Source: a virus. Taken from it: DNA of 11,474 nt. The position numbers were made by a program, and so were the translations under genes. Positions within the stretch are counted from its first letter, which is position 1. Each line of letters opens with the position of its first letter. The DNA is taken from the UHGV virus genome UHGV-0044052; one strand, given 5' to 3'. Under the pieces are notes generated by a model that was not told the origin of the DNA, did not search any database, and was given only the letters and a program-made list of their open reading frames with translations. Below, piece by piece: positions 1,409 through 9,807 of the stretch.

Positions 1409-1631
1409 CGGGTCCTTCCTGGAATTATGGACCCGTTACGGGGCGGCGACCTCGCGGTTTTTATCTGTTTATGAAAATTTTTCTGGAAAAAGCATGTCGG
1501 TACTTCTCGAACATAACTATTTGTTTTTAAATAGATACACAATAAAAAGAAACGACACGGTAATCATCTAAAATGGCGATTTATGACGCTTTCATGTCGT
1601 TTCTCAGTTTTGTTCAATAATTGCGCGTCTG
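1409..1631 (+). other. Lambda-type cos site (cos A): cosQ-like, cosN, cosB-like region with R-site-like motifs
   Basis: cgggtccttcctggaattatggacccgttacg | GGGCGGCGACCT (1441-1452) | cgcggtttttatctgtttatgaaaattttt closely matches the lambda cos junction as recalled. Downstream GAAACGACA (1548-1560) and TGTCGTTTCTC (1595-1605) resemble lambda cosB R2/R1 Nu1-binding sites. Confidence 0.8.
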
Positions 1632-4176: not shown

Positions 4177-4382
4177 TATTCACCCCCATGAGTCTGATTT
4201 ATGCCCAGCGCCGCGCGTAAATAGGAGCGTACCTGCCAGCCTGTTGACGGCTCAACCATCGCCAGCGGATCAAGTCCTGCCGCAATGCCTGCTTTTACGT
4301 TCTGCTGGTGGCGTTCCTTGAGCGCCTTCACGATGTCGGGGCTTATGTACACCGAAACACCGCCTTTTTTCTCTTCAGCCAT
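4176..4382 (-). CDS. Hypothetical protein (68 aa), first gene of the late operon
   Basis: ORF with SD AAGAGGA upstream of the ATG at 4382. Its stop overlaps the capsid gene start (TAATG), suggesting translational coupling. No recognisable family. Confidence 0.5.
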   Translation of the reverse strand: MAEEKKGGVSVYISPDIVKALKERHQQNVKAGIAAGLDPLAMVEPSTGWQVRSYLRAALGINQTHGGE

Positions 4383-4417
4383 AGTAAGAAATTCCTCTTT
4401 GACTTAAAAAATCATAA

Positions 4418-4466
4418 CTGGATGTTCATCCAGCTCTGATTATAATCATGATTGCATTTTGTGCAA
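4418..4466 (-). promoter_or_regulatory. Putative late (head operon) promoter with palindromic operator
   Basis: On the minus strand, TTGCAC (plus 4461-4466) - 16 bp - TATAAT (plus 4439-4444), followed by the inverted repeat CTGGATG-nn-CATCCAG (4418-4433) at the predicted transcription start. An ATTGCA-n-TGCAAT palindrome overlaps the -35. Confidence 0.45.
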
Positions 4467-4545
4467 TGATGTTGAGTTGCGTTGCAAATTATGAAATGAT
4501 TATCCCGATCATGTGTGTCAGTGCACCAAAAAGCCTCATATGCAA

Positions 4546-4586
4546 AAGCCCGATAAGCCACCTCTGACCTTATCGGGCTTTTTTAT
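4546..4586. terminator. Strong hairpin, likely insulating terminator between replication and late modules
   Basis: Perfect 11-12-bp stem AAGCCCGATAAG / CTTATCGGGCTT with a T-run (tttttt) on the plus strand and a shorter U-run on the minus strand. Confidence 0.5.
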
Positions 4587-4599
4587 CTGCCTGCAAAGA

Positions 4600-4760
4600 T
4601 GTCGAACGAAAATTAACCACAACCATCATCTTTTTTGCATCAAAACAATTAAAAACAATAAATTACGCTCATGATGATGATGACGATAAAATCACAAAAA
4701 TGCGCTTTTTTCCGCGCCTCCCGCCCCGTGTTCAGGCCCACCCCGCCAGGAGGACCCGTA
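4600..4760 (-). other. Degenerate cos-like relic (third copy)
   Basis: On the minus strand, ...acgggtcctcctggcgggg...acggggcgggaggcgcgg resembles cosQ-cosN but the cosN core is disrupted (GGGGCGG-GAGG-CGCGG versus GGGGCGGCGACCTCGCGG). Downstream, atcgtcatcatcatcatgagcgtaatttattgtttttaattgtttt resembles the lambda cosB I1 region (tcgtcataacttaatgtttttatttaaaat). Confidence 0.5.
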
Positions 4761-4782
4761 AAAAAGCCGGATTGCTCCGGTT
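4758..4782 (-). terminator. Rho-independent terminator after ssb
   Basis: Hairpin GCCGGA-ttgc-TCCGG with a T-run on the minus strand (plus-strand aaaaaa at 4760-4765). About 35 bp here nearly repeat 2337-2376. Confidence 0.55.
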
Positions 4783-4797
4783 TCTGTCACTCGTCGC

Positions 4798-5220
4798 TTA
4801 AAACGGTATGTTATCCCCGTACGGATCATCATTCCCCGCCTGTTGTTTTGCCCTGTTCAGCGCGTCAGTAGCCTGGCCCTGTTGACCTTTTTTGCCGCCC
4901 AGTCGCGCCGTTCGCGCACTGATTACACTGTCTGCGATAACCTGCCAGCCCTGCCGCGTTTCTCCGTTCTGCCCAGTCCACTGGCTGATCTGCATGTTAC
5001 CCGCCACGCTCAGGAGTTCACCCTTGCGGTGCCTTTCCAGTGCTTCGGCCTGTCTGCCAAATGCCAGGACGGATAACCACATCGTCGCCGTTCCGTCATC
5101 TGCCTGGCTGCACGGAAGGGGGACCGCCATACGCGCCAGCGTCATCGGTGTGCCCTTGCTGGTCTGTTTTACCTGCGGGTCGTCCACCAGCCGCCCGTAA
5201 GCGGCTATCTGTGCTGTCAT
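4798..5220 (-). CDS. ssb: Single-stranded DNA-binding protein (SSB)
   Basis: 140-aa product with an OB-fold-like pattern (GRLVDDPQV...TMWLSVLAFGRQAEAL...KGELLSVAGNMQISQWTGQNGETRQGWQVIADSV) comparable to E. coli SSB, a Gly/Gln-rich linker and an acidic C-terminal tail ending DNIPF (SSB ends DDDIPF). SD GAGAGGTGG present. Start overlaps the upstream ORF stop (ATGA). Confidence 0.85.
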   Translation of the reverse strand: MTAQIAAYGRLVDDPQVKQTSKGTPMTLARMAVPLPCSQADDGTATMWLSVLAFGRQAEALERHRKGELLSVAGNMQISQWTGQNGETRQGWQVIADSVISARTARLGGKKGQQGQATDALNRAKQQAGNDDPYGDNIPF

Positions 5221-5495
5221 GATTCCACCTCTCCGGTTTTAACGTTGATGGTTGTTACCTGTTCCGCTTCGGCAATCTCCCGTTCTGTCAGCGTGGCAAA
5301 GTTTGCCGCTGCTGTGGTCATGAATGCGCTTATCAGGTCGGGATGTTCCTTCGCGTATCCTTCCCCTACGTGTCGGTCTATCGTTCTGATTGCCACCTTT
5401 AAAGCGTGCTCTGTCATGTCTAACGCGCGATATTTCGGTTCTGTTCTGTCTCTGCGTTTTTTGAGTGATTTATTAAATTTCCCTGAAGTGTGCAT
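5217..5495 (-). CDS. Hypothetical protein (92 aa), co-transcribed with ssb
   Basis: ORF overlapping the ssb start by ATGA, begins just downstream of the iteron region. No recognisable family. Confidence 0.5.
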   Translation of the reverse strand: MHTSGKFNKSLKKRRDRTEPKYRALDMTEHALKVAIRTIDRHVGEGYAKEHPDLISAFMTTAAANFATLTEREIAEAEQVTTINVKTGEVES

Positions 5496-5542
5496 ATTTA
5501 TTTTTACCCCCTCGTTTAAAAAGTTTTGAGTTGTGCCTCCCC

Positions 5543-5767
5543 TTGTCTACCTATCTACCTTAGTGGCCCTCATGCCAGTAATGGCGCGGCTTTCAGCGGG
5601 GTAGAGTGCTTTTATCCACTATCTACCCCGTGTCTACCTCCCTGTCTGATTCAGGTAAAATCAGGTAGAGAGGGTAGATAGTGGGTAGACAGTAAAAAAA
5701 GGCTATCTACCTAACTTAATGCACTGAATTAAATGTATTTTTCTTTACTCAGGTAGACAGGGTAGAC
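5543..5767. repeat. Iteron array, putative origin of replication
   Basis: Eleven copies of the 7-8-mer GGTAGA(C/T/G)(A) in both orientations: forward at ~5600, 5664, 5673, 5684, 5752, 5761; reverse (TCTACC) at ~5545, 5553, 5621, 5632, 5705. An AT-rich stretch lies at 5693-5750. Immediately downstream of the primase gene 3' end. Confidence 0.7.
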
Positions 5768-5782
5768 AGCCATTGCAACAAA

Positions 5783-7537
5783 TTATAAAAACGCGTCGCA
5801 ATCGTCTGTTGTTATTGCGTTAGTCTGCGTTACTCCTTTAACTTTCCGCGTAATATATTCATGTCCGTAAACTTTCGCGGCTGGCTTCATAGCCTTGCCA
5901 AAGTCATTTACGTTTAGCGGTTTGCTCCTGCCTGCGTACGCCATAAACGCCAGATAGACGCGGTAAAGGCTGTTTCTGGTCGTGTACTTCACTGAATCGC
6001 CACCGCCGCCCATCATCAGGCCGCGTGCTTCCTCCAGAAAATTCAGGAACTGGCAAAACTCAATAACCGGATCCGTCTGTTGCTTTATTGCCAGTGCTTC
6101 ATCACCGTCACGCTGTTCAATGAGTAAAGCCCGTGCCTTTTCAGGGTCGGCAAAGTTCGCCAGCAAGCGGCGGATAATGACAGGGATTTCAGCCGCGATC
6201 TTTTCCGGTAGCTCCCTGTCTTTTTCTGCCTCGCTTACGATGTTATCGAACCGGAATATCACCCGACGACGTGCCACACCTCCGGCCCGTTCGGTGAATA
6301 TCATCGGATTGTTATTGGTTGCCAGCACCACCGCCCTGATTACCGCCGTAAAACGCTTTTCATATTTCGGGTTAATTTCCACGGGGTCGCCGCCCGTGAT
6401 TTTCTTGATGCCCGTTCCTTCGCCTGTATATTTCGGCTGGTCTGCCAGGACGATAAGACGACTCCCGACAACCTGCGCACGCCCACCAGCATCATCAAGC
6501 GATGTCATTTCAGCGCTTACCGTGTTTTGTTTCCCTGCCAGAAGGCTGGCTATGTGTGTGAATGTACTTTTACCGCTCCCGCCGTCTCCGGTGGCCTCAA
6601 TAAACATCTGCCAGTCGTACCGGTTCGCCATAATCATGTACAGCGCGGCACATATACGCATCATCTTGCGCGGGTCTTTTCCGGCTGCGTGCTCAAGCCA
6701 TTTATGAAAGTTTGGCGCGTTATCGCGGATGTTCTCCCCTGGTGCTGGTGGCGTGTACTCAATGCCGTTGTGCGTGGTGATCCAGTTCTCCGGCGTGTGC
6801 GGGGAAAATTCCCCCGTTTTCAGGTCAAGCGCACCATTGGCGAACGGCAGCAAATCGCCGGACGGCTCGCCCATTGGTTCGGCAATAACTTTTAACGCTT
6901 CCACGGCGTTATTGATTACGCGCTTGCTGAAAGTGGCCCTGTGCTCTGAATAGATCGCCACCATTTCGCGGCTAAGTTCCATTGTGCTGACCGGACACCA
7001 TACCCCGCCGCGCCATACGTGAACGATTTCACTTTCAGGATGTACGCAAACGCCATCAAAGCGATCGGCAAGCAGCTGCGCGCGCTCACTGTCCGCCATC
7101 TGCGAAAGTTGCGCCTTTTGCTTTACCGGAAGCTCAATGACCAGACCATCAGAAAGATTCTGGCGCTCACGGGCCAGATATTCGCGCCAGTTCTCCACCT
7201 TCTGACCGTGCATACCATCAGGGTAAAAATTTGCATCCTGTACGCCTGCCGCCGCCAGCTTCTGACCAATCGCCTTTATCATTACTGGCGCAAGATATCC
7301 GGCCCTGAATATGCGCACGGATTTTCTGCCTTCCGGCACAATTTGCAGCTTATCCAGTTCTGATAACTGCTGCTCCCCAAGCCACACAGGAGGCTCATTA
7401 TCTCCGGCCATACGCGCATCATGTTCCTGCCATTGTTTCGCGTGTGCCCAGGCATCACTACCCGCAAAAATAATGACTTCTGTTCCTTTGTGTTTTATGC
7501 CGCGTGACTGCTGTTTTACGTTCGGTGCCAGTTTCAT
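5783..7537 (-). CDS. Replication primase/helicase (P4 alpha / D5-like, SF3 helicase domain)
   Basis: 584-aa product with Walker A GDGGSGKST in the central region and a C-terminal region plausibly DNA-binding. SD AGGGGT upstream. Start overlaps the preceding ORF stop (ATGA). Domain assignment is from motifs only. Confidence 0.8.
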   Translation of the reverse strand: MKLAPNVKQQSRGIKHKGTEVIIFAGSDAWAHAKQWQEHDARMAGDNEPPVWLGEQQLSELDKLQIVPEGRKSVRIFRAGYLAPVMIKAIGQKLAAAGVQDANFYPDGMHGQKVENWREYLARERQNLSDGLVIELPVKQKAQLSQMADSERAQLLADRFDGVCVHPESEIVHVWRGGVWCPVSTMELSREMVAIYSEHRATFSKRVINNAVEALKVIAEPMGEPSGDLLPFANGALDLKTGEFSPHTPENWITTHNGIEYTPPAPGENIRDNAPNFHKWLEHAAGKDPRKMMRICAALYMIMANRYDWQMFIEATGDGGSGKSTFTHIASLLAGKQNTVSAEMTSLDDAGGRAQVVGSRLIVLADQPKYTGEGTGIKKITGGDPVEINPKYEKRFTAVIRAVVLATNNNPMIFTERAGGVARRRVIFRFDNIVSEAEKDRELPEKIAAEIPVIIRRLLANFADPEKARALLIEQRDGDEALAIKQQTDPVIEFCQFLNFLEEARGLMMGGGGDSVKYTTRNSLYRVYLAFMAYAGRSKPLNVNDFGKAMKPAAKVYGHEYITRKVKGVTQTNAITTDDCDAFL

Positions 7538-8509: not shown

Positions 8510-8729
8510 GTACCCCTCCGCATTTTTTTTCGTTAGAAATAAGCGTTCTTCTTTCCTGTTCATCGCTCAGGAATACGCAGACCTCACCGCTAAGGCGTTT
8601 AAGTAAGCCGATGATTGCCCCTGATTCGCTGTCGGTCATCATGCCAGGGTAATCCTCTGCCAGTGCGCAAATAACTTCGATTTGGTGGGCGCGTTCTGCT
8701 GCCTGTTGTAGTGTGATTTCCTGGCTCAT
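8499..8729 (-). CDS. Hypothetical small acidic protein (76 aa), early operon gene 2
   Basis: ATG at 8729 overlaps the stop of gene 1 (ATGA). Non-repetitive composition. Confidence 0.5.
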   Translation of the reverse strand: MSQEITLQQAAERAHQIEVICALAEDYPGMMTDSESGAIIGLLKRLSGEVCVFLSDEQERRTLISNEKKCGGVHVQ

Positions 8730-8926
8730 AAGCCTACCCCCTGACGAATACGGGCAGCAAATACCATCACGCAGCCAGCCGGAGATTGCTGACGCGCTTC
8801 CTGTTCGCTGGTGGCCTCGATGGTAATCACGCGCGGTTGTGCCGTGCTCAGGGCGATAAAACGCCAGATGTATTTATTCAGGTTGTACGAGTCCCGCCCT
8901 TGCGGGTGTATGGTATAATTTCTCAT
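8726..8926 (-). CDS. Hypothetical protein (66 aa), first gene of the early operon
   Basis: ATG at 8926 with SD GAGG ~6 nt upstream. Corresponds to the 3' end of the 355-aa ORF in the track, whose 5' part is low-complexity and antisense to the RHH gene and is not used. Confidence 0.45.
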   Translation of the reverse strand: MRNYTIHPQGRDSYNLNKYIWRFIALSTAQPRVITIEATSEQEARQQSPAGCVMVFAARIRQGVGL

Positions 8927-9122
8927 AGCTGCCTCGATAATCTTGCTATCGTTGGTGGTTAGAAGCCCCGTTACTGCTCCTACAGTGCGGGGTTTCGTCG
9001 TTTCTGCACCTTGCATTAACAAGGTGTAAGTAACTTTATTTATAGGTGGCTTACATGTCAATGCTTTTATGTAAGACTTTTTATGTGTATATTGTCTTAC
9101 ACTTTCATTGAGAGGATTACAG
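8927..9122. promoter_or_regulatory. Divergent promoter/operator region (genetic switch)
   Basis: Four TGTAAG / CTTACA half-sites arranged as two inverted pairs (9025-9030 / 9050-9055 and 9070-9075 / 9096-9101; the second is GTAAGAC-N16-GTCTTAC). Palindrome CCTTG-cattaa-CAAGG at 9009-9024. Candidate leftward promoter TTGACA (plus 9057-9062) - 18 bp - TAAAGT (plus 9033-9038). Candidate rightward -10 TATATT at 9088-9093. Confidence 0.6.
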
Positions 9123-9428
9123 ATGGCTACAGGTTCAAAAAACGCAAAATCACAATCACTGACAGCTCGGATCCCGCATGATGTTATTGAAGGCATGGAA
9201 TCCGTAAAACTGGACGGTGAAAGCAACGCCGGATTCATAGTAACCGCCATGCGCGGTGAAATCGCCCGCCGCCAGGCAGAAGGAAGCGGAGAAAACCCCC
9301 TGATTTCTTCGCACGATGCACTGGCGCAGGTGGAAAAACTCGGAATCAAAGCCGCCGAGGAGATCGGGCAGCTCGTCACTGTCGCACGTGAAGAACTCCA
9401 GCGCCGCAAGACCAAAGAACCAGAGTAA
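9123..9428 (+). CDS. Ribbon-helix-helix (CopG/Arc-like) DNA-binding protein, putative island repressor
   Basis: ATG at 9123 with SD GAGAGGA. N-terminal SLTARIPHDVIEGMESVKLDGESNAGFIVTAMRGEIARR fits a beta-strand / helix / helix RHH pattern. Divergent from the early operon across the operator region. Confidence 0.6.
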   Translation: MATGSKNAKSQSLTARIPHDVIEGMESVKLDGESNAGFIVTAMRGEIARRQAEGSGENPLISSHDALAQVEKLGIKAAEEIGQLVTVAREELQRRKTKEPE

Positions 9429-9485
9429 TCACCATCAGCGCCGTGGTGTAAGGTATTACGGCGCATTGCTATGCAGGACAACACA

Positions 9486-9659
9486 ATGACCGATAAAGAA
9501 TTGACCAAAACATTATCACCGGCACGGAAAAGACGGCGCAGAAAGATAGAGCATGAATCAGAAAGATTCGCGCCATGTGCTTTTGCCCTTGAGCAATTCC
9601 TTAAAGAATACAGGGAAAAGCGCTCATTGCAGGTATGGCAACGAACTGAACCAGACTGA
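9486..9659 (+). CDS. Hypothetical small basic protein (58 aa)
   Basis: ATG at 9486 with AGGA 8 nt upstream. Contains an RKRRRRK basic patch. Alternative start at 9471 as in the ORF track. Confidence 0.4.
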   Translation: MTDKELTKTLSPARKRRRRKIEHESERFAPCAFALEQFLKEYREKRSLQVWQRTEPD

Positions 9660-9753
9660 TTGCATTGCCCACCAGCCTGATAGCGGCTATCATCCCCGTG
9701 CTTATGTTTGGGATCATATACACATAAGGCGCAGCGGGTTAATTGTTCAGAAA

Positions 9754-9781
9754 GGCGGCTCCATATCGGGGCCGCTTTTTT
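9754..9781 (+). terminator. Rho-independent terminator between convergent rightward genes and alpA
   Basis: Stem GCGGC / GCCGC (9755-9759 / 9771-9775) with an ~11-nt loop, followed by tttttt (9776-9781). Confidence 0.55.
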
Positions 9782-9807
9782 CGTGTTTGTCATATCTGTG
9801 ATACCCG

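Follow-up and report, generated by a model that had tools for sequence, protein, structure and literature searches.

An 11-iteron field immediately 3′ of pri-rep is the probable vegetative replication origin of the Gram-negative PICI EcCIATCC25922

What is the role of a short intergenic gap in which one hexamer recurs in both orientations beside the gene of a P4-like helicase? The gap, 287 nt long, separates a 584-aa gene from a 92-aa ORF in a stretch of 11,474 nt (here called the window), and an initial annotation proposed it as a candidate replication origin. We put at about 0.9 the probability that this repeat field is the vegetative, initiator-specific replication origin of the Gram-negative PICI EcCIATCC25922. 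The origin type and its function are already known, having been published in 2018, and a near-identical copy was tested in EcCICFT073. The present analysis adds a position match to the P4 ori core, a set of iteron specificity classes, and a possible cassette composed of the Pri C-terminal domain and the field. If the assignment is correct, a previously unannotated 287-nt gap in the widely used strains Nissle 1917 and ATCC 25922 is a satellite replication origin.

The window is 100% identical to the chromosomes of Escherichia coli Nissle 1917 and ATCC 25922, where it forms an ~11-kb island beside tRNA-Pro/yejM. The island contains int, an AlpA-like HTH gene, icd-like genes, DUF4222, pri, and SSB, capsid, decoration, and terS-like genes. 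The supplementary table of Fillol-Salom et al. (2018; PMC6092414) lists PICI EcCIATCC25922 at CP009072.1 106749-118031 (11.3 kb, yejM-luxR site), and blastn match H3 of the window fell inside these coordinates. The features that mark PICIs were found: int, an alpA-type regulator, and pri in the same orientation; a size of about 10 to 12 kb; a separate att site; and the absence of tail and lysis genes. The Pfam match to AlpA was weak (E 0.0035, under the Pfam cutoff). The window is thus PICI EcCIATCC25922, a sister of EcCICFT073. The 92-aa ORF (5217-5495, −) is followed by the SSB gene and a lambda-E-type capsid gene. A mechanically called ORF of 355 aa (8726-9793, −) overlaps icd-like genes (one a pseudogene) and an opposite-strand YlcI/YnfO gene in the Nissle record and is probably not a real gene.

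GGTAGA occurs 11 times in the gap, with all copies inside 5546-5767, six of them on the + strand (5600, 5664, 5673, 5684, 5752, and 5761) and five on the − strand (5546, 5554, 5622, 5633, and 5706). This agrees with the eleven copies in both orientations within ~225 bp counted at first. The motif had been written as GGTAGA(C/T), a form that holds for 9 of the 11 copies (GGTAGAY) and fails for those at 5600 and 5664, which read GGTAGAG; the extended iteron consensus is about rGGTAGAyAG. Outside the field, there were no copies in the rest of the window, nor were there further copies in the surrounding 18.5 kb of the Nissle chromosome. Within groups, the iteron spacing is 8 to 11 nt, which is close to one helical turn. 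The field is not a known RNA gene, as no Rfam family matched anywhere in the window.

Short hexamers recur randomly, and the island has a terS-like gene (1632-2174, −; 180 aa), so that chance, a dispersed host repeat, or a packaging (pac/cos) site might be considered as the source of the cluster. However, in dinucleotide-preserving shuffles the GGTAGA count averaged 2.36 with a maximum of 6, and none of 200 shuffles reached 11. The post hoc choice of motif was allowed for by scoring any hexamer in any 225-nt span of 200 Markov-1 simulated windows; the biggest cluster was 6 (mean, 4.1) compared to the 11 observed. A dispersed repeat, the objection anticipated in the initial annotation, is contradicted by the genomic distribution: of 5426 complete E. 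coli genomes searched by blastn, 564 (~10%) carried the field, with a median of one location each; every location was chromosomal, none lay on a plasmid, and a primase gene adjoined every match inspected. As for packaging, exact copies of the lambda-type cosN GGGCGGCGACCT lie elsewhere, at 1441-1452 (+) and 2308-2319 (−), flanking the terS-like gene. Taken together, these explanations have a probability close to negligible. Two cos sites have likewise been reported for EcCICFT073, and the pair of cosN copies suggests, from sequence, that the island may be packaged by cos-type helper phages.

The whole intergenic region between the pri stop codon and the start of the 92-aa ORF spans 5496-5782, and the field starts 15 nt past the stop codon (5783-5785), as its description as lying immediately 3′ of the helicase gene implied. 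Closest to pri are two iterons with the sequence GGTAGACAG at a 9-nt spacing (5752-5769, +), which are invariant among relatives. They are followed by the AT-rich stretch that was also noted at first, located here at 5712-5751 and 77.5% A+T over 40 nt compared to 50% across the window; no other 40-mer in the intergenic region is as unstable, and among those of the whole window this stretch ranks in the top 0.4%. On the other side of this spacer stands a single inverted iteron (5703-5711, −; CTATCTACC on the + strand), and beyond it are three direct iterons (5664, 5673, and 5684, at spacings of 9 and 11 nt) ending in an A7 tract (5664-5692, +). The pair at 5752/5761 thus opposes the inverted copy at 5706 and the triple at 5664-5684 across the 40-nt spacer. 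The distal half contains an iteron pair with 11-nt spacing (5622 and 5633; 5622-5638, −), a single GGTAGAG (5600-5605, +), and a second pair with 8-nt spacing (5546 and 5554; 5546-5559, −) just 5′ of the ribosome binding site and ATG of the 92-aa ORF.

Conservation was not limited to the iterons. A GC-rich, iteron-free block (5571-5596; CATGCCAGTAATGGCGCGGCTTTCAG on the + strand) within the 40-nt distal spacer shows little or no variation across 46 distinct GGTAGA-type fields, whereas the other spacers drift to ~65% identity; this block includes a small palindrome, GCCA-GTAA-TGGC, and is absent from the other iteron classes. The AT-rich spacer, the putative unwinding site, carries a TCAR core (at about 5722-5726; 5717-5729 on the − strand reads ATTCAGTGCATTA) whose offset and strand are unchanged in all PICI iteron classes examined, whereas the P4 ori has ACAG at this place. 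The spacer also hints at an IHF-like site: a match to the IHF consensus WATCARNNNNTTR with zero or one mismatch occurred at the same offset and strand in 8 of 11 representatives, but taken singly the matches did not reach significance in DNA so rich in A+T (shuffle p about 0.15-0.2), L076 and L088 being the exceptions. The sole DnaA-like site beside the window iterons, TTATCCACT at 5612-5620, differs by one mismatch from TTATCCACA; it is not kept in relatives with 65 to 75% identity and so is probably fortuitous, and no conserved DnaA box was found next to the iterons.

The gene adjoining the field, pri-rep (5783-7537, −), encodes a 584-aa protein, the candidate initiator. Pfam matches comprised D5_N (residues 153 to 282), an SF3 helicase/DUF5906 domain (316 to 417), and a C-terminal Pox_D5/winged-helix domain (487 to 576), and the protein reached the TIGR01613 "P4-family primase" cutoff. 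Over the helicase and C-terminal domains (434 aa), Pri is 41% identical to P4 alpha; it also matches the SaPI5 PriRep structure 7OLA (E 4e-15), and its C-terminal domain matches 1KA8, the origin-binding winged-helix structure of P4 alpha (E 1e-6 to 1e-7). The coding region of this domain (residues ~488 to 584; 5786-6076, −) adjoins the field, and the 1KA8 match, together with the comparison of two relatives described below, makes the domain the putative iteron reader. Pri thus resembles P4 alpha in combining an SF3 helicase with a C-terminal winged-helix domain of the origin-binding type.

The N-terminal ~150 aa of Pri are uncharacterized. P4 alpha has an N-terminal zinc-finger/DnaG-type primase domain (PMC2777425), whereas in the alignment Pri has neither the zinc finger of alpha nor its Toprim DxD region. 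Residues 1 to 151 had no Pfam matches, and the N terminus showed no profile similarity to the primase domains of alpha or of the Morganella homologue L007 (hhalign probability, 0.05%). The L007 protein (794 aa) retains the full alpha-like N terminus. An AlphaFold model of the N-terminal 145 aa from the single sequence had a pLDDT of 51, too poor for a fold search. The designation of the gene as a primase/helicase is therefore supported for its SF3 helicase part and doubtful for the primase part. The "primase" label derives from the helicase part (TIGR01613 "primase_Cterm"). Because Pri is without a recognizable primase domain, part of the P4 mechanism cannot be transferred to the window, and "initiator/helicase-specific origin" is the safer wording. 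The product is annotated as a "DNA primase family protein," and the residues without a recognizable primase domain (1 to 150) are encoded at 7088-7537 (−).

A cloning test of the kind proposed in the initial annotation has in effect already been done on EcCICFT073. In this sister island, Pri-Rep is identical to that of the window at 582 of 584 residues (99.7%), and the field is present in CFT073 as one copy with 96.2% identity, about 11 point differences, and all 11 hexamers kept. Gene order, the AT-rich spacer, and the GGTAGA sites are likewise as in the window; the integration sites differ (phoQ-roxA for EcCICFT073, yejM/tRNA-Pro for the window island), and a 144-aa gene occupies the place of the 180-aa terS-like gene. 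The pri-ori, pri-Δori, and Δpri-ori segments of EcCICFT073 were cloned in the temperature-sensitive vector pKO3-Blue, and at 44°C the pri-ori plasmid gave colonies, the Δpri plasmid gave none, and the Δori plasmid gave significantly fewer (PMC6092414). Removal of ori cut colony numbers but did not abolish them (PMC6092414), indicating some replication or maintenance without ori.

To what sequence does the Δori deletion correspond? Primer rep-3c, the end of the Δori clone, maps to L002 9284-9304, equivalent to window 5779-5799, and primer EcCICFT073-rep-2c, the end of the pri-ori clone, maps to L002 8977-8997; the latter was placed after restoring one C lost in the text, the printed form having no match. 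The segment that separates pJP2027 (pri-ori) from pJP2028 (pri-Δori) is therefore equivalent to window ~5473-5778 and spans the whole field, matching the intergenic region outlined above. PICI origins have been defined as lying immediately 3′ of pri-rep and consisting of two iteron sets that flank an AT-rich region (PMC6092414), and the field of the window has this position and this arrangement. The identification as a candidate origin thus finds its support in the EcCICFT073 assay, given the 99.7% identity of Pri and the 96% identity of the field.

The initial annotation had likened the field to an origin downstream of the P4 alpha gene. According to the P4 GenBank record, the element directly downstream of alpha (4636-6969, −) is crr (4291-4590), and the type I repeats of ori occupy 9310-9413, some 4.5 kb from crr. 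The parallel was therefore wrong in naming the downstream element as ori, while the layout of the P4 ori core is in fact reproduced in the window. On the + strand, the P4 ori consists of three copies of GGTGAACAG (9310, 9320, and 9331), about 10 to 12 nt, an inverted TGTTCACC (9353), 35 AT-rich nt, and two copies of GGTGAACAG (9396 and 9406). Between 5664 and 5767, the window has three copies of GGTAGAnAG (5664, 5673, and 5684), 16 nt including the A7 tract, the inverted copy (5706), 40 AT-rich nt, and two copies of GGTAGACAG (5752 and 5761). The proximal six iterons thus follow the ori core layout, and window 5655-5775 aligns position for position with P4 9300-9424. The iterons themselves, GGTGAACAG in P4 and GGTAGACAG in the window, differ at 2 of 9 positions and have 7 of 9 in common, so that the window iteron is not the type I sequence TGTTCACC; the exact P4 iteron is used by the PICI relatives L006, L076, and L081. 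Alpha is said to bind the type I iterons, in work credited to Ziegelin et al. in 1993 and 1995 and to Flensburg and Calendar in 1987. P4 also differs in having its iterons split between ori and crr, 4.5 kb apart, whereas the window has one 225-nt field downstream of the gene.

This position raises the question of whether the field is only a crr-like cis replication enhancer, with the true origin elsewhere in the island. The field does occupy the place of crr relative to P4 alpha, and the distal half (5546-5638), with two sites, a 40-nt spacer, one inverted site, and two more, loosely resembles a crr unit, in which two iterons are followed by a 35- to 40-nt spacer and inverted iteron(s). The proximal half, however, shows the layout of the P4 ori core and not that of crr, there are no other GGTAGA copies in the island or its flanks to serve as ori, and pri with its downstream segment sufficed for maintenance in EcCICFT073 (PMC6092414). 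No second iteron cluster (a separate crr) was found in the island or flanks. A role as enhancer only is accordingly judged highly unlikely.

A second alternative is that the repeats serve mainly as operators at which Pri or some other regulator would govern transcription of the orf92-SSB-capsid genes. Iteron-binding initiators often autoregulate. The field is directly upstream of these genes, its distal pair (5546-5559) lies about 35 nt from the next ATG, and there is no terminator between pri and the orf92-SSB-capsid genes. However, a promoter/terminator scan of 5350-5950, which showed no terminator after pri, also showed no sigma-70-like promoter, and 11 sites arranged around an AT-rich spacer in the layout of the P4 ori exceed what an operator needs. 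In addition, Gram-negative PICIs are described as unidirectionally transcribed, and the ori deletion showed a replication phenotype (PMC6092414). While a primary operator function is thus very unlikely, a secondary regulatory role for the field is possible.

The reading of the field as an origin is also consistent with the origins of SaPIs, which have 6 to 12 iterons immediately downstream of rep and a central AT-rich region and are bound by the winged-helix domain of Rep (PMC9371898). SaPI Rep is a self-loading SF3-type helicase, and its iterons are oppositely oriented on the two sides of the AT-rich region, with at least two per side (PMC9371898). The window has 11 iterons downstream of the gene; its AT-rich spacer, however, is off-center, with two sites on the pri side and nine on the other, and the oppositely oriented site on the far side is single (5706). 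Although the helicase core is homologous (7OLA, E 4e-15), the iteron sequences of SaPIs and the window are unrelated, and SaPIs have an Stl repressor and divergent transcription, whereas the window island has an AlpA-type gene and unidirectional transcription (PMC6092414). In the iteron plasmid origins (pSC101, R6K, RK2, and F), as in the window, initiator repeats adjoin an AT-rich unwinding element; the plasmid initiators are of the RepA/pi/TrfA class, whereas that of the window is a helicase-fused winged helix.

By analogy with these systems, a path for replication of the island can be proposed. Induction by a helper phage and excision of the island would precede firing of the origin. Pri-Rep would then bind the 11 rGGTAGAyAG iterons via its C-terminal winged-helix domain, with the oppositely oriented iteron groups facing each other across the AT-rich spacer at 5712-5751. 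Bound Pri would melt this spacer and load itself as a hexameric SF3 helicase, after which the island would be amplified for packaging. We infer every step here by carrying over the mechanism from the SaPI Rep proteins (PMC9371898) and from P4 alpha (domains, PMC2777425).

To what extent are the iterons conserved among relatives of the island? An IMG/VR scan with a primase alignment recovered 80 loci with 51 to 100% protein identity, while a GTDB scan with a single protein recovered only 3 loci. Among the 46 distinct GGTAGA-type fields (64 to 100% identical to that of the window), the hexamer columns were 93% conserved compared to 71% for the others (Mann-Whitney p = 2e-13). Homologues with 51 to 55% protein identity have the same 11-site layout past the stop codon with a different repeated word. 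At least four iteron classes were distinguished: GGTAGAyAG; GGTGAACAGT, the P4 type I sequence (L076-L080, L088, L081/82, and the Serratia locus L006); ATGAACAC (L083, L086, and the Morganella locus L007); and GGTATACAT (L084/85/87). Some E. coli genomes hold up to four copies of the origin class, and satellites sharing both a host and an iteron type might cross-talk or prove incompatible.

One pair of IMG/VR contigs, L083 and L084, bears on the partner of the iterons. Their Pri proteins are 97% identical, with 15 of the 19 differences among 587 residues located in the final 100 aa (Fisher p = 2.5e-9), and the iterons switch together from TGAACAC to TGTATAC. A sliding identity profile showed that divergence is confined to the last ~260 nt of pri and the field, the diverged block covering ~550 nt (L083 3000-3550), that is, the last ~90 codons of pri and the iteron field, while the flanks are conserved (upstream gene, 92 to 96% identical; downstream genes, 93 to 100%). 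This block looks like a natural exchange of an origin-specificity cassette, and it points to the Pri C-terminal domain, not the product of a neighboring gene, as the likely partner of the iterons. Because the two parts adjoin, divergence of the C-terminal domain and of the iterons could be linked by recombination alone; it is the concerted change of many iteron copies that argues for recognition. In the distal half, the replacement of ATGAACAC by GGTATACAT is only partial, since L084 retains some GTGAACA/GTGTTCA sites there.

These comparisons allow a more specific proposal, which we offer tentatively and consider less probable than not: that the field is a P4-type ori core (5655-5775) fused with a crr-like array (5543-5640) and that this field and the final ~90 codons of pri make up an exchangeable "specificity cassette" swapped by recombination among enterobacterial satellites. 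If this is true, the cassette would set which coresident satellites cross-replicate or interfere, and the short Pri, without a primase domain, would have to rely on the host or helper phage for priming, a requirement with no described counterpart in P4. For the design of delivery vehicles based on PICIs or P4, the rule would be that the C-terminal domain of Pri moves as a unit with the iteron field beside it and that such units fall into distinct specificity classes.

Variation within pri was not confined to the C-terminal domain. In L076 (1501-1950), Pri is 90% identical to the window protein over its first 150 aa and ~50% identical over the remainder, and the iterons are of the P4 type GGTGAACAGT. 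By sequence comparison, pri genes have a mosaic structure with three or more exchangeable modules. An apparent covariation of iteron flank subtype (GGTAGAyAG versus GGTAGAGGG) with the Pri changes N544A/D545E/G547S was broken by L017, which mixes the "AEFS" variant of the C-terminal domain with a window-type (YAG-flank) field; the flank subtypes are therefore not strictly tied to the Pri protein. Finally, L070-L073 (70% Pri identity) have GGTAGA iterons in a rearranged field of 11 to 12 sites, in which the core (two sites, AT-rich spacer, one site, three sites) is distal (~205 to 301 nt past the stop codon) and an extra array of three plus two sites adjoins the gene.
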